Positions 11,264-24,413 of a stretch of DNA of 64,000 nt are shown one piece after another. Numbering within the stretch: position 1 is the stretch's first letter; the number at the start of each line of letters is the position of its first letter. Location of the stretch: UHGV virus genome UHGV-0240017; one strand, given 5' to 3'. The stretch comes from a virus. The notes under the pieces were generated by a model. It worked only from the letters and a program-made list of their open reading frames with translations, had not been told where the DNA came from and searched no databases. A program made the translations under genes and the position numbers.

Positions 11264-11770
11264 TTACAGTACGTTTTCTTCGCGATCGTCTACTAACACA
11301 GAAGTAATCACATAACGCGCTAAGCGATTACGTGCTTCTTCCGTTTCTTCTTCAGAAGGTAGCTGTTCGCCCGCAGGCGCACACAACGTTAGCCCAGACT
11401 CACGAAGCTGTTCGGCATAGTCTTCTACGGCTGTGTCGAACGTACCACGAATACCTGCTACCGCATCCATAATTTCGTCGTTCGGAATAATGGATTCTTT
11501 TAGCACAGCGTGAGCATCTGTAGGCTCCACCATTTGCAGGTTCTGTTCTACCAGCAACGCCTGTTTCGCTAAGCTGTCGGTGATAAAGCAAGACAGAATC
11601 TTTTCGAAATCGTCTAACGAGAATTCGGTGTCTTCAGATGCCCCGGTAATCAATTGCCCGTAGCGATTAAAGAATTCTTTACAACGTGTTTCGTAGTCAG
11701 CTTCTAAGTCGCGAACACCGAGATCAAAATCGTGCTGCTCCAGCTGATTAAAATCCAGAGTCTCTTTCAT
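11264..11770 (-). CDS. highly acidic hypothetical protein
   Basis: 168 aa, very Asp/Glu-rich throughout. Confidence 0.55.
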   Translation of the reverse strand: MKETLDFNQLEQHDFDLGVRDLEADYETRCKEFFNRYGQLITGASEDTEFSLDDFEKILSCFITDSLAKQALLVEQNLQMVEPTDAHAVLKESIIPNDEIMDAVAGIRGTFDTAVEDYAEQLRESGLTLCAPAGEQLPSEEETEEARNRLARYVITSVLVDDREENVL

Positions 11771-11808
11771 CTCTAAGTCTCCAGTTAAGAGGTCATATTA
11801 CCTGCTGG

Positions 11809-12036
11809 CTAGAGTACCAACGTTAACCCGGTATGGGTTTGTGCTGAACCAACGCCATCACGCGCTTTTGCTTTGGCGATAAGTTTGTCAATTACACGTT
11901 GATGACTGCGAGTAATATCTTTACCTGGATAACCGATAATCAGCACGTTCTCAGCATTAATAACCGCCGAGAACTCGTTATCACCTGCAACATAAGCAAT
12001 CTTTTTGTCTTTGGTTACAATACGTTTGATTTCCAT
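11809..12036 (-). CDS. hypothetical protein
   Basis: 75-aa ORF. Confidence 0.5.
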   Translation of the reverse strand: MEIKRIVTKDKKIAYVAGDNEFSAVINAENVLIIGYPGKDITRSHQRVIDKLIAKAKARDGVGSAQTHTGLTLVL

Positions 12037-12045
12037 TCAATGTCC

Positions 12046-12819
12046 TTAAAAGATAAAATGACCAGTTAATGCTTCTGCTTCAACACCAGGCATCGATGGA
12101 GGTGCTGAATATGGAAAAGTAAGACGCACGGTTGCGCCCTTTAAATACGCAATACGGTAGTACGTGGTCAAGAGCGCATTCCCGTAAGTACAATCGTTAT
12201 AGAAGAAACCTTCGGTGGCAAACGTCTTTTCGTTGATTTTCGAATAGACTAAGATACCTTCAACTTTACCATCTTTACGGCAGCACAAACCTTCTGCTGC
12301 ACCAATCGCTAACAATTCCAGGCAGCGCGTATCCAAACTGACATTAACCACCTTAGTGATCGTAAACGTTTCTTCTAACGTTAGAGATTCAATATCATCT
12401 ACATCAGGCAAATCGGTGCGAACTTCAGGTTTTTCAGTAAACGTCAGCTCATAATCGATGAACGACGGCTGCATACGCAAGAACGCCATTAACTGATCGC
12501 GACGTTTTAGGTCATTGGCAGGGTATGTGACATCAAACACCTCTACATTTAACAAACGTTTGAGTTGTGCGAAATTAATTTTCTTCTTCGCAAACACAAC
12601 GATTGCCGACATGTAGAAAATCTTACCATCGGCGCGACCGGAGAAGACACATTGCAGCTGATTCGTGTTCGAAAGAATGATAAAGGTCGGATCTTCAGAT
12701 TCGCGAATGATGTCTTTTTCTATCAACCCTTTTCGTAGACGGGTTAGCGAAACTATTCTACCACCCACACCAATTGCTAAATGGTCATTACGATAATCGT
12801 CAATATCCACTATACGCAT
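12046..12819 (-). CDS. hypothetical protein
   Basis: 257-aa ORF. Confidence 0.55.
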   Translation of the reverse strand: MRIVDIDDYRNDHLAIGVGGRIVSLTRLRKGLIEKDIIRESEDPTFIILSNTNQLQCVFSGRADGKIFYMSAIVVFAKKKINFAQLKRLLNVEVFDVTYPANDLKRRDQLMAFLRMQPSFIDYELTFTEKPEVRTDLPDVDDIESLTLEETFTITKVVNVSLDTRCLELLAIGAAEGLCCRKDGKVEGILVYSKINEKTFATEGFFYNDCTYGNALLTTYYRIAYLKGATVRLTFPYSAPPSMPGVEAEALTGHFIF

Positions 12820-13634
12820 TAGAGCACTCCCAGTAATTCAGTCACCGTTTTCCGAGTAGCGCCAGACGCACCCATATAGCGACCAACCTCAATACTGCGC
12901 CACTCAAAACCGTAATAAATTTCTCGGGTGAGTAGGGTGTCTGCATTTGACAACACAACACTGTTGCCACGTTCCACCTGTTGCTGTAGTAACTTGGCTA
13001 ATTCACGATGATCCGTTTGTGAGAATTCTTTACGGTGGTATTGCGCGTGTTTCGCGGTATCCGATAACGGAATATAAGGAGGATCAGCATAAATCACAGC
13101 ATCTTCAGGTGTCCGTGCTAATACAGAGCGAAAGTCCTCACAAACAATTTCCAGATACTCAACTTCTGCACAACGTTTAGCCCAATCCCGAATTTCTTCT
13201 AATGGATAATAAACCCCATTCGGGTAACGTCCAAACGGAACATTGAACCCACCGCTACTGTTATAGCGACACATACCGTTATAACCGTGACGCATTAAGT
13301 ATAAAAACATCGCAGCACGCTCAACTTCTGACATCGATTTACCGCTATTAAACAGCTCACGACGCTCCATATACTTTACAGTAGTATTACCGTCTAAGAA
13401 CAACGGTTGCGACGCAGCGATCAGTTCTTCAGGCTGTTCACGCGCAACACAAAGTAAGCGTATCAAATCGGGGTTAGAATCCGATAGAATATACCGGCTG
13501 TAATTCGTATTTAGGAAAACAGACCCTGCGCCCACAAACGGTTCTACAAAGGTTGTACGTTTAGGTAAGACCTTTTGTAATTCACCCAAAACGCGCGTTT
13601 TCCCACCCATCCATTTAATTATCGGTTTCCGCAT
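12819..13634 (-). CDS. dam: DNA adenine (N6) methyltransferase, Dam family
   Basis: MRKPIIKWMGGKTRVLGEL...FVEPFVGAGSVFLNT (SAM-binding motif) and DPPY catalytic motif; colinear with E. coli Dam as I recall it. Confidence 0.9.
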   Translation of the reverse strand: MRKPIIKWMGGKTRVLGELQKVLPKRTTFVEPFVGAGSVFLNTNYSRYILSDSNPDLIRLLCVAREQPEELIAASQPLFLDGNTTVKYMERRELFNSGKSMSEVERAAMFLYLMRHGYNGMCRYNSSGGFNVPFGRYPNGVYYPLEEIRDWAKRCAEVEYLEIVCEDFRSVLARTPEDAVIYADPPYIPLSDTAKHAQYHRKEFSQTDHRELAKLLQQQVERGNSVVLSNADTLLTREIYYGFEWRSIEVGRYMGASGATRKTVTELLGVL

Positions 13635-14613
13635 TATATCCGCCTTGTAACGATGATACTTCGTCGCCTAACACCAGCTCGACACGATTTTTCCGACGCT
13701 CCCAACTGACGACGTCATCGTCGCGCACTAAAACAAATTCGTACTCGTAGGACCGAAATTTAAATAATTCGACGACCAGGTGTCTAAATGCAGGGTTGTT
13801 ATTGAAACACCCTATCTCCAATGGTGCCGCTGTTGTCGATGCAATCTGCAGAGCACGGTATAACAAAGTCCGTCCGATACCACGCCCCCGGTGTGTTTCA
13901 CTTACCGCAATGGCTTTTAATTCACACTCGTTAAGATTACGCAATTTAACTTGCACCACGCCCACAACATCGTTGCCGTCCATCCAAACGTAGGTGTGGT
14001 GGTTGACGTGACGTACTAACTCCACCAACGTTTCGACTTGTGGCATGATTTGTCGTGTGCGACCTACAGGGTCACCGTTGATGTTTTCAACGACACTCGT
14101 GCCTAAAAGCAACATAAGCTGTTCACGTTGTGCAGCGGTTAACTCTTTATAAAAATCGCCGGAGATATTCTTCACGTTTGTTGGTAGAGCGATATCCAAT
14201 AACGAGCGTGTACCTAAACGATACGTAGTGTGGGTGTGTCTAAATCCTAAGTCATTAAGCTCAGAGATTTCTTCTACACCACTGGCGATTCGATTAAGAT
14301 ACGTAAAACCGGTGTAGTCGAGTACCAGTAGTAGGTTCAGTTTGTTCAAACAACCTGGTACAATTTCATGCATAAACAAGCAGTGTAACGTTGGATCGCC
14401 GTAAATGTGTTTTGTGATGATAAACCCTTGAATTGTTTTTCCTTTTTGTAAAGAGAACGTATTCAGCTCACTATTGCACAACGCCTCACGAATCACAGCA
14501 CCGTTAGGACCCGATAAACATGTCTGTAGCTGAGGGTTGCGAATATCTCTACGTGCTAACCGACCTACTGTTAAATCCGTGGCGGTACGTTCTATAGTCT
14601 TCCTAAAAGCCAT
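13615..14613 (-). CDS. protein with C-terminal GNAT acetyltransferase domain
   Basis: 332 aa; acetyl-CoA-binding motif IAVSETHRGRGIGRTLLYRAL in the C-terminal third. Confidence 0.55.
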   Translation of the reverse strand: MAFRKTIERTATDLTVGRLARRDIRNPQLQTCLSGPNGAVIREALCNSELNTFSLQKGKTIQGFIITKHIYGDPTLHCLFMHEIVPGCLNKLNLLLVLDYTGFTYLNRIASGVEEISELNDLGFRHTHTTYRLGTRSLLDIALPTNVKNISGDFYKELTAAQREQLMLLLGTSVVENINGDPVGRTRQIMPQVETLVELVRHVNHHTYVWMDGNDVVGVVQVKLRNLNECELKAIAVSETHRGRGIGRTLLYRALQIASTTAAPLEIGCFNNNPAFRHLVVELFKFRSYEYEFVLVRDDDVVSWERRKNRVELVLGDEVSSLQGGYNAETDN

Positions 14614-14659
14614 GTTAATTACTCCTTAAAAGGTCGTCTCAAAACAATACGCTAAAGCT

Positions 14660-14695
14660 GTAAAAACAAAAAAGAAAGGGGAACCGAAGTTCCCC
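14660..14695 (-). terminator. intrinsic terminator (UUCG loop)
   Basis: ggggaac-cgaa-gttcccc, read on the minus strand as GGGGAAC-UUCG-GUUCCCC followed by a U-run. Confidence 0.7.
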
Positions 14696-14707
14696 AATTA
14701 TTAAACA

Positions 14708-15364
14708 TCATGCAAAAGGGGCAGAACTTGTGAAAGCATTATTGGGAGGTAGGCCAGGTTTCCCCAGCTTTTCATGCAGATAATTGAAAAATCTACGATG
14801 GGCTTCGTAGTGACCAGCCGCTACTCGTTGTCCGTAAACCTCTACCAAGTCAGGCGAAAACTTAACATGGCTGTTTTGGCCAGAGAACGAAGGTTGTTGT
14901 GCCCCATCATTAATTAAGATGGGGTACTTTTTACCATCGTCTGTTACGGCATAGAGTATATTTGTATTAAAGTGGAAATAGATAGAAGGGTTAAAGCATA
15001 ACCAGGTGGCGGCATTGATTAGTAAGTCAGCTAACTTAACAGCGATTTTGTCAAGTTCAGGCCCTTCAAACTTATGCACTAAGCGCAGGAAGATTTCAGT
15101 AATAACGGTGCCTGTAAGTAACTTGTCTCTATTAAGACCAGGCGCAACTGCCAGAACATCGCCATTATAGGTGCAGACAAGTGTGAACATGTTGAAAGGT
15201 TGGTAATGATAAATATCGAAAACCAGGTCAGTATACGGGCTATAAGTTAAGAACTTCACCCCGAGTATTTCATTAACACAGGGTAAAAGTTCAATCTTCA
15301 CAGCCGGTTGAACTTCGTTGGTTTTAGTCTCATTCTTTACAGTTTCTTTAGTTTTCGGTGCCAT
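14708..15364 (-). CDS. hypothetical protein
   Basis: 218-aa ORF. Confidence 0.55.
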   Translation of the reverse strand: MAPKTKETVKNETKTNEVQPAVKIELLPCVNEILGVKFLTYSPYTDLVFDIYHYQPFNMFTLVCTYNGDVLAVAPGLNRDKLLTGTVITEIFLRLVHKFEGPELDKIAVKLADLLINAATWLCFNPSIYFHFNTNILYAVTDDGKKYPILINDGAQQPSFSGQNSHVKFSPDLVEVYGQRVAAGHYEAHRRFFNYLHEKLGKPGLPPNNAFTSSAPFA

Positions 15365-15385
15365 GATAATACTCCTTCAGGTTGA

Positions 15386-15745
15386 TTAGTGTGTTGCAGT
15401 GTTAGTGATAAAACGCACATTCTTCTTGGTACGTTTAATGGACGTGTTTGCAACGTAGTCCAATGCGGACTCTACGTGAACGGTTACTGAGCAACGACCC
15501 TTAACGGAATTAAAACTAATCTGATATTTCAGACGAATCGCATCAGCAACTTTCATCATAATCGGCAAGCTTAAACGTTCTACGCGTTCGTTCTTAATAG
15601 ATGAGATAACGGGTTGTGAAACTTTCGCAAGCTGGGCAAGCTCACGCTGGGTAATGTCTTTCGTGGTCAAATGACAAACTACGTAAGACAAATGAAGGCC
15701 AAATTTACGTTTTGCCAGAACGATGGAATTGTGATTGTAAGCCAC
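15386..15745 (-). CDS. helix-turn-helix DNA-binding protein (putative transcriptional regulator)
   Basis: HTH signature ITQRELAQLAKVSQPVISSIKN; GTG start with AAAGGAG RBS 8 nt upstream; conserved promoter-like motif ~50 nt upstream. Confidence 0.55.
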   Translation of the reverse strand: MAYNHNSIVLAKRKFGLHLSYVVCHLTTKDITQRELAQLAKVSQPVISSIKNERVERLSLPIMMKVADAIRLKYQISFNSVKGRCSVTVHVESALDYVANTSIKRTKKNVRFITNTATH

Positions 15746-15794
15746 GGTAATACTCCTTTAGGTTAACAAGTCGGTGTAAAGAGTTAATTGTAAC

Positions 15795-15820
15795 TCTCAC
15801 CTAAGTAATATATATCTGAG
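15795..15820 (-). promoter_or_regulatory. conserved promoter-like motif (coding strand TCAGATATATATTACTTAGGTGAGAG) plus downstream hairpin
   Basis: One of three near-identical copies; about 50 nt upstream of the start codon; followed by inverted repeat gagttaattgtaactc. Confidence 0.55.
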
Positions 15821-15858
15821 AAAAAATAAAATATAGGTACCACCGTTGGGTGGTACCT
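15818..15858 (-). terminator. intrinsic terminator
   Basis: aggtaccaccgttgggtggtacct stem followed on the minus strand by a U-run. Confidence 0.7.
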
Positions 15859-15864
15859 AAGCGG

Positions 15865-16488
15865 TTAGTTTGCTAAAATGTGCGTAACAATCTCTGCGGC
15901 TTTCAAACGGTAATCGTCATTCTGCGTTACCGGTAATAACGTGTGAAGACAACCGCCTTCTGTTAAGATGTGGTGTGCGAAACGATAATGGTCGCGTAAG
16001 CCATCCCAACATTGGTTGTCTTTTAGATACTTAACAGTAAGTACCTCGTCATCCCAATTCTTACCTTGTTCTTCTACGCGTTTCTTAAATCGCGCTAACG
16101 CTGTTGGGTAATCAACATCTGTCCAAACATAAAGGTCAGGAGTGTGGAAATGACGTGTTAGCTTACGTTGGAAAACCACGTCCTTACCATCTGTCCCCTG
16201 ATAAACGATCGTTGAAGGACAGAAGCGATCGAAAATAACGACATCGTACTCGTCAACAACATGGTCTAACGTGTGAAGGAAATCATCACACATTGCTTCA
16301 GCAATTTTTGTTTTCGAAGCAGACTGTACAACCAAGCTACGTGCACGAATGCCTGCCTCGGTTTCAGATGTCGGATGGTTCCGAACGCAAACTTTTAATC
16401 CTGCGGATTCCAACATCGCTTTTACCATTTTACACAACGTCGATTTTCCAGAAAAATCAGGACCATCAATAGACACTGTCTTAAGCAT
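15865..16488 (-). CDS. tmk: thymidylate kinase-like dNMP kinase
   Basis: P-loop GPDFSGKST plus downstream DRF...S..VYQG signature matching the Tmk DRY..S..AYQG motif. Confidence 0.65.
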   Translation of the reverse strand: MLKTVSIDGPDFSGKSTLCKMVKAMLESAGLKVCVRNHPTSETEAGIRARSLVVQSASKTKIAEAMCDDFLHTLDHVVDEYDVVIFDRFCPSTIVYQGTDGKDVVFQRKLTRHFHTPDLYVWTDVDYPTALARFKKRVEEQGKNWDDEVLTVKYLKDNQCWDGLRDHYRFAHHILTEGGCLHTLLPVTQNDDYRLKAAEIVTHILAN

Positions 16489-16559
16489 TATTGTTTTACC
16501 TTTTTACGCACGTTAAGTGAAACTTCTCACAATGAGGGTAACAGTTGTAATAATTTACA

Positions 16560-16596
16560 ATAAAAAAGAAACCCGCCCCTACCGTTAAGTAGGGGT
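16560..16596 (-). terminator. intrinsic terminator
   Basis: cccctac-cgttaa-gtagggg hairpin with flanking A/T runs. Confidence 0.65.
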
Positions 16597-16602
16597 AAGG
16601 TT

Positions 16603-17208
16603 TTATTGGTGATCAACAATCGGATCACTCCACACTTCTGACGTTTCCGGCATAGCGAGATTAGCAGCCTGTGCAGACGGAACGCACAGCAAGACTAACC
16701 CTTGTTTAGCAAGATAATGTTGCATTCTTGCAGCCTGCACAGCGGTGTCCACAATAACGAGCTCAGCGCCACGTAGAAGCGTTAGAGCCGCTTGTCCCTC
16801 CTGTGGCGTGGTTAAAGCATCACTGTCGTCCAGAATGCGTTTAAGGCGGTTATACGCCAGTCCGGTTACATTACTTCGACCTGCACGAAGATCGACAACC
16901 ATATCGTTGTATTCCCCCACCACTTGTTGCGTCGAGTTTGGATAAAATCGAAACGCAGCACGGCGACGTTTACGTCGCACCTCAGAAATCGCACGTTGTA
17001 AAACCAGCAAAACGTATTTCGGAGCCGCTTCGCTATTCGGTCGACGCATCTTGGCTAAACGTGCAGCTAAATCCAAAATTTTCGTTAAGGGATAGCGATG
17101 TTTAAACCCGTCGCGTTCGATAGTAACGCCACGCTTAGGCAACTTGCCTGTTTTGTTGATATACGATACTGTAATCAATAGTAATGAATCGAGAATCATC
17201 TCTGACAT
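16603..17208 (-). CDS. hypothetical protein
   Basis: 201-aa ORF. Confidence 0.5.
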   Translation of the reverse strand: MSEMILDSLLLITVSYINKTGKLPKRGVTIERDGFKHRYPLTKILDLAARLAKMRRPNSEAAPKYVLLVLQRAISEVRRKRRRAAFRFYPNSTQQVVGEYNDMVVDLRAGRSNVTGLAYNRLKRILDDSDALTTPQEGQAALTLLRGAELVIVDTAVQAARMQHYLAKQGLVLLCVPSAQAANLAMPETSEVWSDPIVDHQ

Positions 17209-17222
17209 TACAAGGCCCTCTC

Positions 17223-17594
17223 TTAGAACCCCTCAAGAACAGCTTTCACAAATTCGTAAACCGTGCGTCGGTGTTCTTCAAGCGGATAAACAAACTTAGA
17301 ATAATCGTTGTTCCAGACAACCGGATAGAGGTCGCCGTCACAACTTAAATAGCTCTTACGAACCATGTAATAATCTAAACCTACACGGAAGTTTAACGAC
17401 AGACTACCGTGTTTACTACAAACGTGTAGCTGGAGCGATTTCACACCGTCGTGGGTTGGTGATTCAATCGTTTCCGCATACAATACATCCGAACACTGTT
17501 CTATAGCGCTAACGACATCTCTGAGGTTGTTGTCTGCATCGATGGTCGCTTTTCGGAGAGCGTCGGTGTATTGCTGAAGTTCTCGATAGAACAT
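17223..17594 (-). CDS. hypothetical protein
   Basis: 123-aa ORF; GGAG RBS upstream of the ATG at 17594; overlaps the 3' end of the upstream ORF by 94 nt. Confidence 0.5.
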   Translation of the reverse strand: MFYRELQQYTDALRKATIDADNNLRDVVSAIEQCSDVLYAETIESPTHDGVKSLQLHVCSKHGSLSLNFRVGLDYYMVRKSYLSCDGDLYPVVWNNDYSKFVYPLEEHRRTVYEFVKAVLEGF

Positions 17595-18133
17595 CCTGCT
17601 AATCTCCTGTCTCTACCGTAAGGTAGGGGAAATGCTTTGTGTTCATATTCTGCAACGACATACGCAGGATAGAACAAAAGGTATTTATAGAACGTAGACA
17701 ACGTAACGTTTTTCTGGGTGGCTAAAAAGTAATTAAGATCGGGGTTGTCTGGAAAAGCAAAATGCAATCCTGTGTATACCTGACCTTTATACTCCCCATT
17801 AAAGGGTGTGACTGCACATCGTGGGTGTGTCGGCTCGACGTGTAACCAACGACTTCTTACGTGATAAACGCCACGGACTGTCGCGTTTCGTGTTTTACCC
17901 AAATAACGGCAACGGATATTCTTTTCCCACGCCGCACGTTGAGTGGGTGAACCCAGAGAAACAAACCGCGTTAAAGCTTCAGGTGTAAAGTAATCAAAAA
18001 TGCCGGTCGGTAAACACCAACACGCTTTATCGATTCGTACCACTCTCCAACCAGGACGAAAACCCACAGCGTAACGCTCTACACCAAAAGTATATCTAGA
18101 CCCGTCATGAAACGGTACTAATCTTGCAGCCAT
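17501..18133 (-). CDS. hypothetical protein
   Basis: 210-aa ORF; the last ~30 codons overlap the next gene. Confidence 0.5.
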   Translation of the reverse strand: MAARLVPFHDGSRYTFGVERYAVGFRPGWRVVRIDKACWCLPTGIFDYFTPEALTRFVSLGSPTQRAAWEKNIRCRYLGKTRNATVRGVYHVRSRWLHVEPTHPRCAVTPFNGEYKGQVYTGLHFAFPDNPDLNYFLATQKNVTLSTFYKYLLFYPAYVVAEYEHKAFPLPYGRDRRLAGCSIENFSNTPTLSEKRPSMQTTTSEMSLAL

Positions 18134-18134
18134 T

Positions 18135-18602
18135 TTAGATTTCCTTTATCATTTCCCTGCATTCGGTACGGAATCCCATCTTCTCATACAAGGAGATAGC
18201 TTTAACGTTGTTGTCTAACACATCCAGACTCATCCAACCACAGCCTTTGGACTTTCCGTATTCACGGACTTTGTCCATAAGCGCACGGCCTACCCCTTGA
18301 GAGCGTGCTTCAGGAACCACATAGTAATTCCCGATGTAAACAAACGTGTCCTTTGAGCAAGAACCCATTGAGAACGTCATAAATCCCAGAAGCTGTTCGT
18401 TGTCGTCCACCGCACACGCACAGAGATAATCTTGAGGCCAAATCTCTTCTAAACGTTCGATGGGGTTGAACGTGTCACGTCCGGTTAACTGACTAATACG
18501 CACTTTCTCTTCTGCGAACAGCATGTTGTGCAGTTTGAGTACCTGGTCGCCGTATAACTTTCCGTATTTACTGTCGGGTTTGAGAATAATAGTAATACGC
18601 AT
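18135..18602 (-). CDS. GNAT family N-acetyltransferase
   Basis: 155 aa; acetyl-CoA-binding motif VVPEARSQGVGRALMDKV and typical GNAT length. Confidence 0.75.
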   Translation of the reverse strand: MRITIILKPDSKYGKLYGDQVLKLHNMLFAEEKVRISQLTGRDTFNPIERLEEIWPQDYLCACAVDDNEQLLGFMTFSMGSCSKDTFVYIGNYYVVPEARSQGVGRALMDKVREYGKSKGCGWMSLDVLDNNVKAISLYEKMGFRTECREMIKEI

Positions 18603-19735
18603 TATTTAACCTCAATCAGCGACAACCTGCACCATTCCAGTAAGCCCTCCGCAACACGCACCAACGAAGTAGTAAAGGCATCTTCTAAACGCAGCGCGTT
18701 TTTATACCGGACAGTAGCATCGCGTAACTCACGACCATCTAACGATTTCAGCTCTTTTTTCATTCGCTGAACTTCATCGTAAATACCGGTATAACCAACA
18801 CTACGTCGTTTCGTACCACGCTGACGTAACGCTCGGATAATGTTTCTAACAGCATCGAGAGCTGAACCGATTTCGTGCAAGTTCAGAGATTTGATTGTGT
18901 GGCCAAAATCACCATCGCGGGCAATCGCCCACTCAATCTTACCGTTGTCGTGTTCAACGACCACCACGTTACCAGGCCACGGATACGCTTTCACCGTTTT
19001 AAACGGATCAATAATACCGAACAGTCCTGCGCTTCGTTTAATCGCCCAGTTCGTTGACCGACCCACTTTCTCCAAACCGCTCTCGGTAACTTTCTTGCTC
19101 TTACCGATAATAGTGCGTGTTTTAACGGTATACTCGTTGACCATCGCATCCATTGCGCTCAAGTTCTTACTGAATTCAATACATGCTTTTACGTTAGGCT
19201 TGTCTTCTAAACAAACTTTGGTTGTCCAACTTCCCGTGTCGCAGTCGACCGGCTTTAACGTGTCCTTGATGCCGAGTAAACTTAGCTTTGCGGTTAACTT
19301 TTGCAGTTTGCGTTCTAAAGTCGTCGCTTTAGACGTCGCTTCTTTTAATTCCTTTATGACTTCTTTACCGGCGGCTTCCGCGAAGTCGACAAAACGTAAC
19401 GCAAGTTGCTTAGAATGCTTACCTGCGAAGTTTCCAGTTGCCTTAGCCCCCGCTACCGCTGCCTTTCCAGCAACACGACTAGCCCCTTTAACCGCTCTGC
19501 CGGTCGCGCGTGCGACCGCTTTACCTACTCCTGCGTAAGGCTCAGTGTCCGCAACAAATTGCGCGCGCTCCATCATCGCTGCAGACTCTAGCGCAACCTG
19601 CACATCGTCTAAAACCCACCGTTTTCGGATAGCGACAATCGCCGGATAATTGTCTTTAACATTAAGCGACTCTAACGCGACCAGTCGATCATAGTCATCG
19701 CAAAGGACTTCTAAATCGGAATCTAATGTTGACAT
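18602..19735 (-). CDS. hypothetical protein
   Basis: 377-aa ORF with an Ala/Lys-rich N-terminal segment. Confidence 0.55.
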   Translation of the reverse strand: MSTLDSDLEVLCDDYDRLVALESLNVKDNYPAIVAIRKRWVLDDVQVALESAAMMERAQFVADTEPYAGVGKAVARATGRAVKGASRVAGKAAVAGAKATGNFAGKHSKQLALRFVDFAEAAGKEVIKELKEATSKATTLERKLQKLTAKLSLLGIKDTLKPVDCDTGSWTTKVCLEDKPNVKACIEFSKNLSAMDAMVNEYTVKTRTIIGKSKKVTESGLEKVGRSTNWAIKRSAGLFGIIDPFKTVKAYPWPGNVVVVEHDNGKIEWAIARDGDFGHTIKSLNLHEIGSALDAVRNIIRALRQRGTKRRSVGYTGIYDEVQRMKKELKSLDGRELRDATVRYKNALRLEDAFTTSLVRVAEGLLEWCRLSLIEVK

Positions 19736-19785
19736 CCTTTACCCCATTTTAAGCTAAAGCGGGGAGAAGCCCGCCCTGACTAACT

Positions 19786-20334
19786 TCATAATAAGCGTAG
19801 GTCTTCTAACCACTTAGACGCATCGGTAACATGGTAGTAACACTGGATGTTCAGCGACTGCGCATAACGAACACCCATTGCTGTACCACCTTTTGGATTT
19901 CCCTTTTTATCGTGTTCAGCGTAATAATAGACCGCATCTACGGGGTTGTCTAAAGCGTCACCGGATACAATATTTAAGTTTCGTCCATGCAAAGCCCAGG
20001 CTATATCCGACAGTTTATCGGGATTAGGGTGAAGCGATGCCACAATCCCACGATAACGAATGTCTTGAGGGATAACGCGAAAGTCAACATTCGGATGTAA
20101 CTTACGTAACCACAACTTACGATCGTCGGGCAAATAGCAAATATGTGGACCTGGTTCAGTACGCGCTAACATAAACTGTAATTGGTCTGGCCCTTTATAA
20201 CAACCACCCGAACGGGTTTCGATTTTGTGCTGTTTATTACGAAGAATTTTGAACCCGCGTTGCAACACGTCCAACATTTCTTGCATCGTGTCTTCGGGCG
20301 TTTCTCGAGAACCAATAATAGCGATTTTATACAT
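19786..20334 (-). CDS. Rossmann-like SLOG/DprA-like domain protein (tentative)
   Basis: N-terminal KIAIIGSRE resembles the DprA/SLOG GSR motif; glycine-rich GNPKGGTAMGVRYA later. Confidence 0.3.
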   Translation of the reverse strand: MYKIAIIGSRETPEDTMQEMLDVLQRGFKILRNKQHKIETRSGGCYKGPDQLQFMLARTEPGPHICYLPDDRKLWLRKLHPNVDFRVIPQDIRYRGIVASLHPNPDKLSDIAWALHGRNLNIVSGDALDNPVDAVYYYAEHDKKGNPKGGTAMGVRYAQSLNIQCYYHVTDASKWLEDLRLL

Positions 20335-20364
20335 TTGTCACCTCCATACTGAAGTTGTGAAGTG

Positions 20365-20407
20365 AAAAAAAAAGAAAGCAGGAGAGAACCCCGAAAAGGT
20401 TCTCTCC
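20365..20407 (-). terminator. intrinsic terminator
   Basis: ggagagaacc-ccgaaaag-gttctctcc hairpin preceded on the plus strand by an A-run. Confidence 0.7.
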
Positions 20408-20421
20408 TATCGTTGACGATA

Positions 20422-21084
20422 TCACCCTTCTAAACTACTTAAAACGGCAGTTTCGAGTAACGCTTTACCCATCCAGACATCCAACTCACCATCTAAGTCA
20501 GCTAAAGGGCGCTTATCCAGTTCGTTGTTGTAGTTAAGTCCGTCAAGGGTTTTATTCGTAATAATTTGCCCAATATGAAGCGGTAGAATAAAACGATTTC
20601 GTGCGCTATAAATAAACGAATCACATTCGTAAACTACCGCATAGCGCTCAAGATCGTCATCATACTCAACATGGCACTGCGAGCCAGTGTCCCATGCACG
20701 TGACAAAATCATACCACGATCTTGACACATCTTCTCTACTGACGCTTTCGCGGACTTTGCCCATTTATCGTAATTTTTCGGTTGGCCGTTTTCGAAATCG
20801 AACCAATCCAGATACTTACCGGGAATCTCAAGAAAGTCGTTTAGTTGAAGTTTTGTGTAAGATACCATCACCGCGTCATTAATATCGTTGCGGTTAGTTA
20901 ACTTTACCCGATACCGACCTTCCGGTGTGGGTGCACCCATTAAAGAAACATCCACTTTCTCAGCCGAAAGCTTTTTACGTACACTGCCGTTATTACAGTA
21001 GCTGACGAGGTTGAGTAAGTTCTGTCTATGACCAACTTCAAAATCAATTACAAAAGACATACAAACTCCGCGGGGGTTAATCAC
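20422..21084 (-). CDS. hypothetical protein
   Basis: 220-aa ORF. Confidence 0.5.
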   Translation of the reverse strand: MINPRGVCMSFVIDFEVGHRQNLLNLVSYCNNGSVRKKLSAEKVDVSLMGAPTPEGRYRVKLTNRNDINDAVMVSYTKLQLNDFLEIPGKYLDWFDFENGQPKNYDKWAKSAKASVEKMCQDRGMILSRAWDTGSQCHVEYDDDLERYAVVYECDSFIYSARNRFILPLHIGQIITNKTLDGLNYNNELDKRPLADLDGELDVWMGKALLETAVLSSLEG

Positions 21085-21476
21085 TAATACCCGTATAACG
21101 GGTAGCGTGCGGTGATCTCATCACCGACATAAAAAGTTAAACGTTGGATTTTAATACTTTTATTTACATAGGGTACAGTTTCTAACGTTACCTTTACACC
21201 GGCAGAACAGCTTCCAGGATCAACAAACTGATATGTACGTCGTTTGATATTTACCAAATAGTAGCCACCCGCTGGGCACAGTTCGGTTTTGCCATAATTT
21301 ACCGTGGCAAACTCATCGTTTTGAACCGCAACGACTGGTTGGTCGGTAGATTTAAATACGACAGGTTTATCCCCTGGCACCGTAGGTTCAAAACGACTAA
21401 TATCGTGCGGTTTAAATTCCGCTATCGCGGAAAATGAAAGTAACGTTAGAAAAAGGGTAATAACAGATCTTTTCAT
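21084..21476 (-). CDS. secreted hypothetical protein
   Basis: 130 aa; signal peptide MKRSVITLFLTLLSFSAIA. Confidence 0.5.
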   Translation of the reverse strand: MKRSVITLFLTLLSFSAIAEFKPHDISRFEPTVPGDKPVVFKSTDQPVVAVQNDEFATVNYGKTELCPAGGYYLVNIKRRTYQFVDPGSCSAGVKVTLETVPYVNKSIKIQRLTFYVGDEITARYPLYGY

Positions 21477-21952
21477 CAGTATACCTCATCAAGATGTTCG
21501 CGTAGCCATGGTTTCGACTCTAAGCGCGGAATCATGTTCCGCGTGTTCGGCGAAAACCATAACGCTTCGCGATATTTCTTTTTGAAACGTTCCCAGTGAT
21601 ACGAGAATGGCTTGGGTGTAAAACCGCGCTCTTTTAGCACCTCCTCCCAAACCAAGTCTTTAATAAAATCATCCACTAAAATTAATACCAGCGCTTTCCA
21701 TTTACTACGTCGGTAGTGCCGTGTAAAAGATTTGCGGAGATCAGAAAAGTCCTCTCGTCGCCGAGAACGTACTGCTGGAGTTGCCTTCTCTTTAAATTGC
21801 GAACAAGGATTATGTTCTATTATCGTTACAGGAACACCCCGAACACGACCTGTACGCAAGTCAATCTCGTGAGCGGGGATAACTTCAACGCAACGTAACA
21901 CTTTTGCTTTATTGCCTTCCAAGCACCGCGTCTCATATTCGACACGAATCAT
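21476..21952 (-). CDS. basic hypothetical protein
   Basis: 158 aa, Arg/Lys-rich. Confidence 0.5.
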   Translation of the reverse strand: MIRVEYETRCLEGNKAKVLRCVEVIPAHEIDLRTGRVRGVPVTIIEHNPCSQFKEKATPAVRSRRREDFSDLRKSFTRHYRRSKWKALVLILVDDFIKDLVWEEVLKERGFTPKPFSYHWERFKKKYREALWFSPNTRNMIPRLESKPWLREHLDEVY

Positions 21953-21971
21953 TTTGGGCTCTCAACCATTT

Positions 21972-22448
21972 CTAATAAATCTTATCCGCAACAGAGAGAA
22001 AGATGGGGGTGTTTTCAATAAAATCCACCAAATATCCTTCTTCTGGCGGGGTGTATGACGAATCAATGTTACTGTTCGTCATACGAAAATACCGACGGGA
22101 GTCACTGGCAATAAACCATCGGTCTATTTGGAAGCCTTTTTTGGAAAAGAAACATAGACCGTCGATGTTTGAGGGATGAACACGACACATCACCATTTGA
22201 CGATCTGAATTAAGTTGAACGTATTTCAGTAAAAAAGAACCTACACCGCTACGACGAGAACCTTCAGCCACCACCAGATAGATAAGATTCCCCGGCTCCC
22301 AGATTACAACCCCGTGTGTAATATCATCTTCAACGGCCAACGTAATTCTAACTGGCGTTTCTCGAATCGAATTTAAATCTTTCACATATTCGCGCAATTC
22401 AGGAAATTTAGTGGAGATTTTGTCTTCGGTAATATTTAACGGTTGCAT
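21972..22448 (-). CDS. GNAT-like acetyltransferase (putative)
   Basis: VVAEGSRRSGVGSFLLKYV resembles GNAT motif A. Confidence 0.5.
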   Translation of the reverse strand: MQPLNITEDKISTKFPELREYVKDLNSIRETPVRITLAVEDDITHGVVIWEPGNLIYLVVAEGSRRSGVGSFLLKYVQLNSDRQMVMCRVHPSNIDGLCFFSKKGFQIDRWFIASDSRRYFRMTNSNIDSSYTPPEEGYLVDFIENTPIFLSVADKIY

Positions 22449-23128
22449 TATTGATCCCCTATCGATAAAACGTTTTTAACAAATTCATCCCACGTGGTAT
22501 TCCCACCAGAAGTAAATAAACTGCTAAGTGGAACGTTTCGATGCTGTGGAATAATCGCATCAAGTTTCGTTACTGGAACTTCGCTCCATAAAGCCCAACC
22601 ATACAACCCTTCCACCGTTTTTCTCTCACCACGAAGGGATGGCACCCACCAGGTAAACTGTATGAATCTTTTACCACGACAGATTTTAAGGCTGGTAGTA
22701 AAACCGTGGTCTAACATCCGAACGTCGTCAAACTTACAATTAATCGAGAAAAGACCATAACGGGCAAGCAATCTCCTTATCTGAAGCCTTAGGTCATTCT
22801 GATAGTCGTTCAATTCGACAGCGTCTACATAAACCTGTCCCTTCCCAACTCCAAACCCTTTCTTTTCTAAATGCTCCGCTATTAACGCAGACGTACTCCC
22901 CTCCACACCCGGACAATCTAAACTGCCAGATAAAGGTACTGCACGATAATAGCGATGGACCGTCTCTTGGAAAGCGGTCGTAACAATTTTTTCGTCTTTA
23001 GCGAAATCAACAATTTCCCCATTAGAGGTGACCAACGGTCCAACCTTCAGGTCCTGAATAGGTATCAGTAACGTTCTGGTCATTAAGCGTAATGGTTCCA
23101 CAATAGCACTCCTTCTTTTAAGTCTCAC
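22448..23128 (-). CDS. hypothetical protein
   Basis: 226-aa ORF. Confidence 0.5.
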   Translation of the reverse strand: MRLKRRSAIVEPLRLMTRTLLIPIQDLKVGPLVTSNGEIVDFAKDEKIVTTAFQETVHRYYRAVPLSGSLDCPGVEGSTSALIAEHLEKKGFGVGKGQVYVDAVELNDYQNDLRLQIRRLLARYGLFSINCKFDDVRMLDHGFTTSLKICRGKRFIQFTWWVPSLRGERKTVEGLYGWALWSEVPVTKLDAIIPQHRNVPLSSLFTSGGNTTWDEFVKNVLSIGDQ

Positions 23129-23139
23129 AGTATGTTTAA

Positions 23140-23188
23140 AAATTGTAAAAATAAAAAGAAGTAACCTCTACCCGAAGGTAGAGGTTAC
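23140..23188 (-). terminator. intrinsic terminator (UUCG loop)
   Basis: gtaacctctacc-cgaa-ggtagaggttac with a long plus-strand A-run. Confidence 0.7.
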
Positions 23189-23190
23189 TG

Positions 23191-23769
23191 TTATTTCGTT
23201 GTTGGGCTTTCTGTCTTCGACTTAAGCTGGCCTGATTTCTCAAGCTTCTTCTCAACAACTTTTGTGGCTATCTCAAGAGACTTATAAGCCAACGTTTTAA
23301 TCGGCCAAGTCGCAAAAACAACCAACGCAAAGAACGGTACCAATGTCACAATCAGAACATCTAAACTGTCTTCTGGAAAATGTTGATGCGTGTCGTAACC
23401 CAGGAAACCGGTTACAACAACCGTCACTAACGTCAGAAGGGCAATAATGAACTTCTGGGGAGCGGATAATTTCGGCCATAAGGTTAGCATGGTTTCTTTG
23501 CTAATCTCATCCCCGAGAGATTCCACAGCGTCAGTTGCCTGCTGATGGAATTGTTCTGATATTTTGCCTAAGTTATCGATTAGCGTCGGGCGTAAGTCGG
23601 AAAGAATCTTTGTTCCTGAACGGGTGACGTCAACATCGACGTCATCCCCATACGCCGCTTTCAAGAGTTTCGTTAACTGTTCAGATTGTTCTTTACTTAA
23701 CTTTTTGTTTCCAGCTTGGATCAATAAGTCAAGTATTTCAGTGGGTAGTGCTTGTGTGCTTGGTTCCAT
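23191..23769 (-). CDS. membrane protein (two predicted TM helices)
   Basis: 192 aa; hydrophobic segments FIIALLTLVTVVVTGFLGY and LIVTLVPFFALVVFATWPI. Confidence 0.5.
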   Translation of the reverse strand: MEPSTQALPTEILDLLIQAGNKKLSKEQSEQLTKLLKAAYGDDVDVDVTRSGTKILSDLRPTLIDNLGKISEQFHQQATDAVESLGDEISKETMLTLWPKLSAPQKFIIALLTLVTVVVTGFLGYDTHQHFPEDSLDVLIVTLVPFFALVVFATWPIKTLAYKSLEIATKVVEKKLEKSGQLKSKTESPTTK

Positions 23770-24413
23770 TAACGTTTTCTCCGACGCCTTCTCCGCCTGG
23801 AGGTCTTAGTCGACTTTTGTTTAGGCGGTAGCAAGCTATTTAAGTTTAACAGATTTACCCTGACGAAAATATTTCCCACCGCCACAGCATCAATGCTGTG
23901 CTCATCTAACGTTGTAATATCAAACAAAGCATGTTCACGGTAGAGCTTGGTCACGGCCCGAAACATATCGGTTTTATCCGTCCCCTTCGCTTCCACCCCA
24001 ACGAATGATTTTACAATGATAGGATTGAAGCCGTGTAAAATTTTCTCCGGGTAAATATCCCACAAAGTACGTCGCAACATTAATTGTAGTTCGACGCCAG
24101 ATTCATAAGCGGAGAGTTTTGCTCTCCGCATGAACGGTGTCTCAGTTGCAACGAAAGTTGGGCAGGCAATCCGAAGAAATTCACGGTAACAAGCTTCGAG
24201 CTTAACTAAACGATCGTCACGTTTACCGACACACTCTGCGAACGCATTTGGATGCGTTGGGTCTAATACATGCATGGTATCAGCCCAAACCACTTCGGCT
24301 TGATCGCTGCCGTATTCCCAATCCAATACTGCCATACCAAGATGGCTCGTACCGGGGTCTATTGCCGCGATTCTTACCATCTTATCTGGAAGTCTCGGCT
24401 CGGGTATCAACAT
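23769..24413 (-). CDS. RuvC-like Holliday junction resolvase (putative) with poly-Arg C-terminus
   Basis: IAAIDPGTSHLGMAVLD (first catalytic Asp), VATETPF (Glu), TLDEHSIDAVAVG (Asp/His); C-terminal KTSRRRRRRRKR. Confidence 0.5.
   Translation of the reverse strand: MLIPEPRLPDKMVRIAAIDPGTSHLGMAVLDWEYGSDQAEVVWADTMHVLDPTHPNAFAECVGKRDDRLVKLEACYREFLRIACPTFVATETPFMRRAKLSAYESGVELQLMLRRTLWDIYPEKILHGFNPIIVKSFVGVEAKGTDKTDMFRAVTKLYREHALFDITTLDEHSIDAVAVGNIFVRVNLLNLNSLLPPKQKSTKTSRRRRRRRKR

Follow-up and report, generated by a model that had tools for sequence, protein, structure and literature searches.

Results

The window (the whole stretch of viral DNA analysed here, 64,000 nucleotides) is a divergent relative of the Salmonella jumbo phage SPN3US. 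From position 11264 to 25300 (11.3-25.3 kb) its best SPN3US matches are collinear, gene by gene, with SPN3US_0084-0109, and all the listed ORFs were found on the minus strand at the coordinates given here, as were the other features described below. Erwinia phage phiEaH2 and a metagenomic relative of 224 kb show this gene order too. The SPN3US block (JN641803 / NC_027402) agrees with the window in the order, strand, size and predicted function of its genes, with a Dam methyltransferase, three GNAT acetyltransferases (GNAT1, GNAT2 and GNAT3), a thymidylate-kinase-like enzyme (Tmk), an HTH protein, a DprA-like protein and an internal head protein at equal relative positions. It differs in that its proteins are only 22-83% identical to those of the window, the DNA-level match is confined to a ~70-bp promoter element, and SPN3US_0093, 0099, 0102 and 0107 are without counterpart in the window. 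All seven domain calls of a preliminary description of this DNA (Dam, three GNATs, Tmk-like, HTH and DprA-like SLOG) were confirmed.

On the coding strand, 26 terminators consisting of a hairpin and a T-run were found, against 14.7 +/- 4.5 expected, and the strong hairpins fall exactly in intergenic gaps. These putative terminators divide the region into ~6 transcription units, all on one strand, with each GNAT in a different unit.

The HTH operon begins with a Cro/C1-type HTH DNA-binding protein (15386..15745), the ortholog of SPN3US_0101. Its gene has a GTG start and a good Shine-Dalgarno sequence, and the product matches PHROG 7126 (E=2.4e-31) and exceeds the Pfam gathering scores of HTH_37, HTH_26 and HTH_3. 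Upstream of this gene, at 15795..15816, lies GATATATATTACTTAGGTGAGA, the predicted core of an early promoter of the virion RNA polymerase type, with a short leader hairpin after it (motif search and alignment). The early motif GATATATATTACYTAGGTGAGA has three copies in the window, with 0 expected, and just one in the region. It is kept at the equivalent place in the metagenomic relative and in SPN3US, there too in the Tmk-HTH gap, and it fits the early promoters that have been predicted for phiKZ-like phages (PMC7058600 Table 2; PMC7598289). Judged by this motif, only the HTH operon carries a canonical early (virion-RNAP) promoter. The second gene of the operon (14708..15364) encodes a 218-aa orphan protein; it stands where SPN3US has SPN3US_0103, a gene of equal size, to which no similarity was detectable. 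An intrinsic-terminator-like hairpin and T-run (14678..14695) ends the operon; this and the other terminator-like elements come from the hairpin search.

Directly downstream lies the unit of GNAT1 and Dam. GNAT1 (13615..14613; 332 aa; PHROG 8663), the ortholog of SPN3US_0104 at 30% identity, overlaps the Dam start by 20 nt. It exceeds the gathering score of Acetyltransf_1 (E=3.5e-12), with the match confined to residues 199-278, and the catalytic GNAT domain is C-terminal (aa ~195-300, with the motif RGRGIG at 242). GNAT1 is probably a tandem GNAT, its N-terminal half, which is specific to this lineage, being a degenerate second copy of the fold. This suggestion comes from a structure model of low confidence (pLDDT 58), for which the top Foldseek matches are tandem GNATs aligned across both halves (E 1.5e-10 to 1e-7), and the best sequence-profile match of GNAT1 is the tandem Legionella effector VipF (6WQB). 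At the level of sequence profiles the N-terminal half is not confirmed as a GNAT fold (P about 0.01), and this half has no sequence relatives beyond this phage group; the full-length family comprises 8 clusters in 1.84e9 representatives. Known tandem GNATs, namely VipF (6WQB, 7WX5), clavulanate ORF14 (2WPX), MshD (1OZP) and MAB_4324 (7Q3A), are comparable in that both halves align to the ~330 aa of GNAT1 and its motif-bearing domain is C-terminal. Identities are however 10-17%, and the low confidence of the model makes the domain arrangement unreliable (TM 0.3-0.4).

The Dam gene (12819..13634) encodes an orphan Dam-family (GATC-type) N6-adenine DNA methyltransferase, 67% identical to SPN3US_0105, its ortholog. 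The protein matches Pfam MethyltransfD12 (E=2.7e-57) and NCBIfam TIGR00571 'dam' (254.6 bits vs a cut-off of 114.85), and it has the D12-class fold and the catalytic DPPY motif in common with E. coli Dam (2G1P) and the phage orphan Dams of T4 and P1. The preliminary description had called it host-like. It does fall in the E. coli family, with 225 bits to E. coli Dam 2G1P versus 44 bits to the merely distant T4 Dam (1YFJ), and it keeps the EcoDam GATC-contact residues K9, Y119, N120, R124, P134 and Y138, with L122 replaced by M (residue roles from PMC4417163). However, its score of 258.9 does not reach the equivalog cut-off for E. coli dam (441), and its nearest relatives (50-99% identity) are all on phage contigs of ~220-250 kb; bacterial Dams come next at 44-49% identity, enterobacterial ones at about 45-49%. 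The dam gene holds the same position in at least three genera; it is an old gene of the phage lineage and no recent acquisition from a host. The best PADLOC match is 'orphan methyltransferase', and PADLOC detected no nuclease partner. GATC is depleted in all three relatives compared, with observed/expected ratios of 0.55 in the window, 0.36 in the SPN3US block and 0.18 in the phiEaH2 block, and no GATC clustering at regulatory or terminal positions was seen in the window. The Dam stop codon shares one base with the start codon of the next gene (12046..12819), whose 257-aa product is a weak ortholog of SPN3US_0106 (PHROG 9941 E=4e-25; 26% identity) and gave no match in Pfam and PADLOC searches.

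On the other side of the HTH operon, a terminator-like hairpin (15834..15859) follows a single-gene unit (15865..16488) that encodes a thymidylate-kinase-like P-loop kinase, 64% identical to its ortholog SPN3US_0100. It matches Pfam Thymidylate_kin (E=2.2e-19) and has the P-loop and DRF motifs, yet falls short of the NCBIfam dTMP-kinase equivalog cut-off (57.6 vs 83.25).

The next unit lies between a strong terminator-like hairpin of 14 pairs with a T-run (20379..20409) and a closing one (16576..16595). Its DprA-like protein (19786..20334), identified by profile and orthology to SPN3US_0092, is a stand-alone Rossmannoid protein of the SLOG superfamily. The closest named SLOG systems are the Rossmannoid domain of DprA/Smf and the DprA-like antitoxin ShosA; unlike DprA, the 182-aa window protein is without the SAM-like and winged-helix domains, and Pfam DNA_processg_A is not matched. 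There follows a phiKZ-type internal head protein gene (18602..19735), which the preliminary description had overlooked. Its product is 59% identical to SPN3US_0094 and matches Pfam phiKZ_IP (29.2 bits vs 27) and PHROG 2497 (E=1.9e-73). Its stop codon overlaps the start codon of GNAT2 (TAATG), as is also the case in SPN3US. GNAT2 (18135..18602; 155 aa; Acetyltransf_1 E=2.6e-19) is by profile and orthology the counterpart of SPN3US_0095 and of phiEaH2 YP_007237670, with 48% and 50% identity, respectively; among PDB sequences it matches diamine and polyamine acetyltransferases best. The remaining genes of the unit, assigned by PHROG and SPN3US comparison, are orthologs of SPN3US_0096 (17501..18133), SPN3US_0097 (17223..17594; a head protein in SPN3US) and SPN3US_0098 (16603..17208).

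The GNAT3 unit has a terminator-like hairpin (23160..23189) as its upstream boundary and starts with a fast-evolving 226-aa protein (22448..23128; 22% identity to SPN3US_0087), whose stop codon overlaps the GNAT3 start codon. GNAT3 (21972..22448; 158 aa; 60% identity to its ortholog SPN3US_0088) has an acetyltransferase fold. It scores below the Pfam gathering score (Acetyltransf_7, 23 bits vs 27), yet it matches PHROG 7861 'acetyltransferase' (E=1.3e-70) and the crystal structure PDB 7DQG 'putative acetyltransferase' (E=2.5e-62), which is SPN3US_0088 itself. PHROG and SPN3US comparison place the orthologs of SPN3US_0089 and SPN3US_0090 after it (21476-21952 and 21084-21476, together 21084..21952), and then that of SPN3US_0091, a tail protein in SPN3US (20422..21084). 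The 21084-21476 product has a signal-peptide-like N-terminal segment.

Discussion

The region is in all likelihood the ortholog of the SPN3US_0088-0105 block, as found in SPN3US-like phages (Seoulvirus and relatives), which are phiKZ-related jumbo phages with their own RNA polymerases, and a mosaic of independent terminator-bounded units. These same functions are already named in the SPN3US annotation of SPN3US_0084-0109; the block is thus an annotated one, conserved gene-for-gene, that mixes early, metabolic and virion genes, and is no special early modification cluster. The units would have independent functions and, presumably, differing timing: an early unit of the HTH regulator and the fast-evolving orphan protein, driven by the virion-RNAP promoter; a dTMP-kinase-like single gene, presumably for nucleotide supply; a unit of lineage-specific acetyltransferase, orphan GATC Dam and 257-aa protein; a virion unit of DprA-like SLOG protein, internal head protein, GNAT2 and the gp96-gp98 orthologs; and a unit of fast-evolving protein, GNAT3 (fold from 7DQG), two further proteins and the tail protein ortholog. 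In these phages, temporal classes besides 'early' are not predictable from sequence (PMC7598289).

The closeness of the Dam to the E. coli enzyme, its DPPY motif and the kept GATC-contact residues make GATC self-methylation a reasonable expectation. The enzyme would most likely methylate replicating phage DNA, giving progeny a host-like GATC methylation which, with the marked GATC depletion, would limit methylation-sensitive GATC nucleases or MutH-type nicking. This phage group replicates inside a protein shell, and the Dam would need to reach the DNA there. The usual hosts of the group (Salmonella, Escherichia, Erwinia) already methylate GATC, which makes their own restriction at GATC unlikely and lends some weight to a mainly non-defensive role, be it as a packaging or replication mark (as in phage P1), in gene regulation, or in blocking MutH/mismatch-repair nicking of DNA that is under-methylated through rapid replication. 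The fixed gene position and the orphan character, with no nuclease partner detected, agree with such a role. However, the strong GATC depletion in all three relatives indicates selection against the site rather than its use as a signal, and the lack of GATC clustering at regulatory or terminal positions in the window also speaks against it; we consider this role possible, if on the unlikely side.

The preliminary description had considered several GNATs in one phage region unusual. This does not hold, as the same three are annotated at the same SPN3US positions and a survey of 224 jumbo phages found numerous GNATs in every group (PMC7824862). The cluster that it proposed stands in so far as the enzymes co-locate: in the complete SPN3US annotation, three of the four acetyltransferases and the only DNA methyltransferase lie within ~10.6 kb of 240 kb, which is mildly non-random (rough, post-hoc scan probability of about 0.02); a common selective logic or local duplication may have had some part in it. 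What does not stand is the unity of the cluster, since the GNATs belong to three differing PHROG families and three differing terminator-bounded units. The Q/R-x-x-G-x-G/A acetyl-CoA motif is present in the catalytic domain of each GNAT; nothing joins the three into one pathway, and their co-location reflects a conserved genome architecture of the phage group. It is rather doubtful that they are old local paralogs, brought together by duplication and divergence and without shared function. In profile-profile comparison with hhalign, GNAT2 pairs with the C-terminal domain of GNAT1 at a probability of 92% (E=8e-7) and with GNAT3 at one of 43% (E=2.4e-4), and there are weak cross-matches among the GNAT PHROG families. 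Such similarity, however, is typical of any GNAT pair, the identities are too low for a tree, and the fourth SPN3US acetyltransferase lies ~76 kb away.

We think it improbable that the region is a coordinated early module for host takeover and anti-restriction, in which the GNATs acetylate host targets soon after infection, Dam protects incoming or replicating DNA and the HTH regulator controls the whole. The early-promoter motif before the HTH gene does fall within the region, and terminator read-through could extend into GNAT1-Dam directly downstream. For GNATs of jumbo phages, a role in modifying the host's RNA polymerase or ribosomes has been put forward on the model of phiKMV Rac (PMC7824862), and the share of SPN3US acetyltransferases in the block would fit as well. 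But the motif is found in just one of ~6 units, and strong terminators part each GNAT from the others. GNAT content also varies among relatives, with GNAT1 absent from phiEaH2 and GNAT3 shrunk there to a 122-aa ORF. Finally, in SPN3US the GNAT2 unit encodes head proteins and the GNAT3 unit a tail protein: mass spectrometry classed gp94, gp95 and gp97 as 'Head' and gp91 as 'Tail', with gp98, gp100, gp103 and gp104 found in trace and classed 'Non-virion' (PMC10052503 supplement). The designation of the region as early-type is supported for the HTH operon but not for most of the rest, which includes the orthologs of these four head and tail proteins. That the GNATs inactivate drugs or toxins, for instance by acetylating aminoglycosides or streptothricins or by acting in the manner of antitoxins, is highly improbable: GNAT2 weakly matches models and structures of AAC(6') and streptothricin/nourseothricin acetyltransferases, but only in the generic acetyl-CoA-binding core and far under the curated cut-offs (AAC_6p_group_E 40.8 bits vs 140, STAT 35.8 vs 420), the NCBIfam cut-offs for resistance enzymes are reached by none of the three, GNAT1 and GNAT3 lack even such weak matches, and antibiotic resistance is of no obvious benefit to a lytic jumbo phage.

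Within this mosaic of independent units, the most interesting detail is that the GNAT2 family is head-packaged and includes proven spermidine acetyltransferases. In E. coli without speG, the members from phiEaH2 (YP_007237670) and Caitlin (YP_009292176) give rise to N-acetylspermidine, while the SPN3US member (YP_009153389) was inactive in the spermidine acetyltransferase assay (Li et al. 2023, PMC9992855). GNAT2 has the same length as the two active enzymes and is their ortholog by position, since its gene comes straight after the head protein gene and overlaps it; the YP_007237670 gene likewise overlaps the phiEaH2 internal head protein gene. For GNAT2 the activity is a prediction, and the lineage-closest assayed ortholog, that of SPN3US (48%), is the inactive one. 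The family is unrelated to SpeG/PaiA at the equivalog level (26 bits vs a cut-off of 250). The translation of GNAT2 is probably coupled to that of the head protein gene. To judge from its orthologs, GNAT2 is most likely present in the head in few copies, as an acetyltransferase of the spermidine/diamine type, and would enter the cell with the DNA. Phage T4 packages the ADP-ribosyltransferase Alt in its capsid and injects it with the DNA (PMC7824862, and established knowledge). The two differ in chemistry (NAD+ vs acetyl-CoA), their folds are unrelated, and ejection of gp95 into the cell is hypothetical; the likeness is one of function alone, in that the head would bring into the cell, at infection, an enzyme that modifies the host or metabolites.

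A divergent gene block of the SPN3US type

All long ORFs between ~5 kb and 28 kb are located on the minus strand. By protein, the nearest annotated relatives are the Salmonella jumbo phage SPN3US and its kin (Seoulvirus), followed at greater distance by Erwinia phages of Erskinevirus, Machinavirus and Wellingtonvirus. Gene-by-gene BLASTP of the ORFs from 11264 to 25300 yielded best matches that are all collinear with SPN3US_0109 down to SPN3US_0084, at 22% to 83% protein identity to SPN3US. Among 50,697 phage records there was no genome-level megablast match for 12.0-23.2 kb, only a match of ~70 bp common to SPN3US-like jumbo phages; this is an early promoter element, and it is the sole DNA-level similarity between the region and SPN3US. 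A metagenome scaffold of 224,230 bp (ENA ERZ28628744) has an identical gene order and a Dam methyltransferase 99% identical to that of the window. For the first acetyltransferase of the region (GNAT1, 13615-14613, minus strand), a look-up of the exact sequence in public assemblies returned no record; one partial homolog exists in NCBI, under the label Escherichia coli. The protein relatives, the collinearity, the scaffold and this E. coli-labelled homolog together identify the window phage as a ~225-kb phiKZ-related jumbo phage of enterobacteria, diverged from SPN3US, and the locus is a divergent member of a gene block already annotated in SPN3US and its relatives.

The preliminary description saw here a cluster of DNA- and protein-modifying functions among early-type genes. 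As an observation this is confirmed, since every domain call holds; the interpretation is borne out only in part. The presence of multiple GNATs, which had been regarded as unusual, is not, as a survey (PMC7824862) already reports numerous GNATs, Dam-type methylases and DprA-like SLOG proteins across jumbo phages. With several GNATs plus Dam common in such phages, and the block already annotated, its description as a cluster of modifying enzymes is of little importance. The locus has some value as a second, divergent sequence set (about 50% identity) for the SPN3US-type block. Only two of its features merit experimental follow-up: a putatively head-associated, possibly polyamine-directed acetyltransferase (GNAT2, 18135-18602, minus strand) and the pairing of Dam with depletion of GATC.

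Four acetyltransferases are annotated in the complete SPN3US genome, three of them in this block, along with a single DNA methyltransferase. The rough post-hoc probability of finding three of four acetyltransferases within about 10.6 kb of 240 kb is near 0.02. Their co-location is compatible with an old local duplication (the C-terminal domain of GNAT1 matches GNAT2 with an hhalign probability of 92%) or with an accessory-gene neighbourhood. Several features argue against a single coordinated pathway: terminators separate the GNATs, the PHROG families differ, virion and non-virion products are mixed, and presence varies among relatives. The fourth SPN3US acetyltransferase (NC_027402, 172536-173024) is encoded outside this block, some 1.4 kb upstream of the gene for a macro-domain protein.

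Divergence along the block is uneven. The genes at 22448-23128, 12046-12819 and 13615-14613 (all minus strand) are 22%, 26% and 30% identical to SPN3US, compared with 45-83% in their neighbours, and two of these three are the first gene or the immediate neighbour of a GNAT or Dam. This pattern suggests host-specific adaptation.

Transcription units and a predicted early promoter

Hairpin plus T-run terminators number 26, against 14.7 +/- 4.5 expected, and the strongest of them (23189-23160, 20409-20379, 16595-16576, 15859-15834, 14695-14678 and 11260-11233, on the coding strand) fall exactly in intergenic gaps. These terminators delimit several units: one with the gp87-like gene, GNAT3 (21972-22448), two genes of unknown function and a tail-protein ortholog; one with the SLOG protein (19786-20334), the internal head protein (18602-19735), GNAT2 and the orthologs of gp96-98; the single gene of the thymidylate-kinase-like enzyme (Tmk, 15865-16488); the HTH regulator (15386-15745) with a 218-aa orphan (14708-15364); and GNAT1 with Dam (12819-13634), the 257-aa unknown (12046-12819) and further genes. 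The three GNATs accordingly belong to three separate units.

The gap between Tmk and HTH holds TTTCAGATATATATTACTTAGGTGAGA. Its 22-nt core occurs three times in the window against zero expected, each time intergenic and on the coding strand; the conserved early-promoter-like element, TTTCAGATATATATTACYTAGGTGAGA, lies at 15795-15816, 42951-42972 and 51206-51227 (minus strand). The motif is AT-rich, contains TATATTAC, lies upstream of operons and is repeated, like the early (virion RNA polymerase) promoters of phiKZ-like phages; the plain 8-mer TATATTAC is by itself not significant (4 versus 2.2), and only the extended motif is. SPN3US carries the element at the same position (12245-12259 of its 82-101 kb segment), and the core agrees with the consensuses tabulated in PMC7058600 for predicted early promoters of 201phi2-1, OBP, N1M2 and phiKZ (TATATTAC). 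Wherever transcripts were mapped, motifs of this type proved to be early promoters of the virion RNA polymerase; middle and late promoters are not predictable (PMC7598289). Sigma-70 promoters showed no excess over shuffles (22 versus 25), which is unsurprising in a phage that encodes RNA polymerases of its own.

Within the region, the HTH operon alone has a canonical copy; degenerate copies lie near 10540 and 16540 (minus strand), and it is a degenerate version that precedes Tmk. The promoter prediction therefore supports early timing for HTH and the 218-aa orphan, makes it possible for GNAT1 and Dam through read-through, and leaves it unlikely for the unit encoding head proteins. The literature search returned nothing usable on expression timing in SPN3US. 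The label "early-type genes" is thus supported for the HTH operon and not confirmed for most of the region, where virion and non-virion genes are interleaved (see below).

Downstream of each promoter copy lies a short inverted repeat, with arms GAGAGTTA..TAACTCT and GAGATTAC..GTAATCTC in the window and GAGAGTT..AACTCTC in SPN3US. Because the arms change between copies and yet stay complementary, early transcripts are suggested to bear a conserved 5' leader hairpin. Across the whole window there was no Rfam match at gathering thresholds and none from ARAGORN. Together, promoter and leader hairpin provide a means of recognising early operons by sequence in a poorly studied subgroup. Directly downstream of the 42.9-kb promoter copy lies a 47-aa ORF (42761-42904, minus strand) with a lipoprotein-like N-terminus (MISVKHKKAIFAVVIAVVLGC...), which may encode a small early membrane protein.

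A GNAT encoded with an internal head protein

GNAT2 is a clear member of its superfamily (Acetyltransf_1, E=2.6e-19; 70.1 bits versus a gathering score of 20.7), with the acetyl-CoA-binding motif A (Q/R-x-x-G-x-G/A) present as RSQGVG at residue 100. The gene before it, missed in the preliminary description, encodes an internal head protein (PF12699 phiKZ_IP, 29.2 bits versus 27, residues 42-367; PHROG 2497, E=1.9e-73) that is 59% identical to SPN3US_0094. The stop codon of the head protein and the start codon of GNAT2 share one base in the sequence TAATG, an arrangement found also in SPN3US and the Erwinia phage phiEaH2. On the opposite strand of the head protein gene is a 232-aa ORF (18840-19538, plus strand) that none of the searches supported and that is in all likelihood a shadow ORF.

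Virion status was taken from the SPN3US orthologs as classed in the mass-spectrometry supplement to Scheuch et al. 2023 (PMC10052503). There, SPN3US_0094, SPN3US_0095 (17.6 kDa; the GNAT2 ortholog) and SPN3US_0097 are classed as "Head", consistent with their similar mean spectra in whole virions and tailless particles (48/33.7, 41/32.3 and 12.7/11, respectively). SPN3US_0109 is likewise "Head", SPN3US_0091 and SPN3US_0084 are "Tail", SPN3US_0098, 0100, 0103 and 0104 are present at trace levels only and classed "Non-virion", and SPN3US_0088, 0092, 0101 and 0105 are absent from the listing. Judged by these ortholog classes, the region consists of interleaved virion and non-virion genes and is not one stretch of early genes. 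The main texts of the SPN3US proteomics papers searched do not mention gp88, gp92, gp95, gp104 or gp105.

The best solved-structure matches of GNAT2 are diamine, polyamine and nourseothricin acetyltransferases. In a study of candidate spermidine N-acetyltransferases expressed in E. coli lacking speG, Li et al. 2023 (PMC9992855) found that N-acetylspermidine was made by phiEaH2 YP_007237670 (154 aa) and by YP_009292176 of the Erwinia phage Caitlin; SPN3US YP_009153389 was inactive in the same assay. The latter is SPN3US_0095. The YP_007237670 gene overlaps the 3' end of the phiEaH2 internal head protein gene, which makes its product the positional ortholog of GNAT2. GNAT2 shares 50% identity (E=1e-59) with this active enzyme and 48% with the inactive SPN3US ortholog; given the latter, spermidine activity is not confidently transferable to GNAT2. 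Nor does GNAT2 belong to the curated SpeG or PaiA equivalogs (NF053587 SpmdActasePaiA, 26.1 bits versus a cut-off of 250).

By orthology, then, GNAT2 belongs to a family in which polyamine activity has been demonstrated for some members and head location for another. In the literature examined, the head location of gp95 and the spermidine activity of the phiEaH2 and Caitlin orthologs appear unconnected: the word "acetyl" is absent from the supplement of PMC10052503, and "acetyltransferase" from its main text. One may speculate, as a minority reading that we regard as rather doubtful, that GNAT2 is a polyamine (spermidine) N-acetyltransferase which is produced alongside the internal head protein, packaged in the capsid and delivered into the cell with the DNA. 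According to this speculation, the delivered enzyme could acetylate spermidine or another amine at the start of infection, ahead of phage gene expression, and this would for a time impair host processes or defences that depend on polyamines. Another possibility is that GNAT2 acts on polyamines that accompany the packaged DNA. One GNAT of the block comes from a family with established spermidine acetyltransferase activity and with a member located in the SPN3US head.

GNAT1 and GNAT3

GNAT1, like GNAT2, passes Pfam (Acetyltransf_1, E=3.5e-12; 47.1 bits versus 20.7), over residues 199-278 only, and has motif A as RGRGIG at residue 242. No other recognisable gene of the block evolves faster (30% identity to SPN3US), and phiEaH2 has no counterpart. 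The full-length family comprises eight clusters at E<=1e-10 among 1.84 billion representatives, the remaining matches covering the C-terminal domain only. The AF2 model is poor (pLDDT 58); in it, the N-terminal half shows the strand-helix order of the GNAT fold. The best Foldseek matches of this low-confidence model are tandem GNATs aligned over both halves (E down to 1.5e-10), namely ORF14 (2WPX), VipF (7WX5 and 6WQB), MAB_4324 and MshD, and VipF is also the best match of a 9-sequence GNAT1 profile. Compared with GNAT family profiles by hhalign, the N-terminal half gave P about 0.01, which is not significant. GNAT1 is probably a tandem GNAT.

GNAT3 falls below the Pfam gathering score (23.0 bits versus 27) and is upheld by PHROG 7861 "acetyltransferase" (E=1.3e-70) and PDB 7DQG (E=2.5e-62); its motif A is RRSGVG at residue 65. 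The 7DQG structure is that of the SPN3US_0088 protein, 60% identical to GNAT3 and deposited as "putative acetyltransferase", for which the literature search found neither publication nor substrate. The block includes a GNAT whose ortholog has a crystal structure.

Drug inactivation, proposed in the preliminary description as one role of these GNATs, is disfavoured, as all three stay below every curated threshold for resistance enzymes or equivalogs. In PADLOC, neither the GNATs nor the SLOG protein nor the orphans matched a defence or anti-defence model. No further GNAT copies turned up in the window when HMMs built from the three families were run against its six-frame ORFs.

Dam and GATC depletion

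The Dam gene occupies the same position in SPN3US and phiEaH2. Its product matches Pfam MethyltransfD12 (E=2.7e-57; PF02086, 194.8 bits versus a cut-off of 22) and NCBIfam TIGR00571 "dam" (254.6 bits versus 114.85), has DPPY at residue 184, and is far closer to E. coli Dam (2G1P, 225 bits) than to T4 Dam (44 bits). In an alignment, the GATC-reading residues of EcoDam (Horton et al. 2015, PMC4417163), K9, Y119, N120, L122, R124, P134 and Y138, correspond to K7, Y118, N119, M121, R123, P133 and Y137, so that L122 to M is the sole change among the GATC contacts. The enzyme had been called host-like, and in score it is indeed of the E. coli type; it nevertheless falls below the E. coli dam equivalog (NF008152, 258.9 bits versus a cut-off of 441). 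Recent capture from a host is rejected: every homolog in the 50-99% identity range is encoded on a phage contig of 220-250 kb or by a named jumbo phage (SPN3US or those of Erwinia), and bacterial Dams start only at 49% (range 44-49%). Also rejected was the idea that Dam pairs with the downstream 257-aa gene as a restriction-modification system, since there is no nuclease signature; the best PADLOC match of Dam is "orphan methyltransferase".

Of all 4-base palindromes in the window, only CTAG (observed/expected 0.41) is more depleted than GATC (0.55). GATC is scarcer still in the corresponding blocks of SPN3US (82-101 kb, 0.36) and phiEaH2 (11-27 kb, 0.18), so that all three Dam-encoding relatives compared show the depletion. 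The GATC sites of the window show no local clustering. On Dam or methylation in SPN3US, the literature search returned nothing usable. As the most economical reading of these sequences, we infer that Dam would keep the fast-replicating phage DNA fully methylated at its few remaining GATC sites. Candidate benefits are shielding from GATC nucleases that are sensitive to methylation, escape from nicking of the MutH type, and a role in packaging or regulation. An E. coli-type Dam combined with strong GATC depletion over three genera makes a clean test case for why phages of a group known for enclosing its replicating DNA in a protein shell retain a methyltransferase.

Kinase, regulator, SLOG protein and other genes

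Tmk matches PF02223 Thymidylate_kin (70.3 bits versus 27), with the P-loop GPDFSGKS and DRF at residue 87, and its best PDB matches are thymidylate kinases. Because it misses the cut-off of the dTMP-kinase equivalog (TIGR00041, 57.6 bits versus 83.25), its substrate could be another nucleoside monophosphate, and "thymidylate-kinase-like" is the right wording. HTH passes three HTH models. The SLOG protein has the SLOG/DprA Rossmannoid fold; at 182 aa it consists of the core only, lacking the SAM-like N-domain and C-terminal winged helix of DprA, and it has no Pfam (including DNA_processg_A) or NCBIfam match.

The 218-aa protein, second gene of the HTH operon, had no match in Pfam, PHROGs, NCBIfam or PADLOC and is dissimilar to the same-sized SPN3US gene at that position (gp103). 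Either this early gene has been replaced or it evolves very fast, which makes its product a candidate host-interaction or anti-defence factor.

The 130-aa SPN3US_0090 ortholog (21084-21476, minus strand), whose gene adjoins that of the tail-protein ortholog, has a signal-peptide-like start (MKRSVITLFLTLLSFSAIA) and may be a secreted or periplasmic phage protein. At the low end of the window, a protein of ~1480 aa (436-4878, minus strand) corresponds to a tail-fibre-like protein with Phage_fiber_2, Gp34_trimer and Peptidase_S74 domains in the metagenomic relative (L004 18731-20816), and a DUF488-N3a protein is encoded nearby at ~6174-6548.
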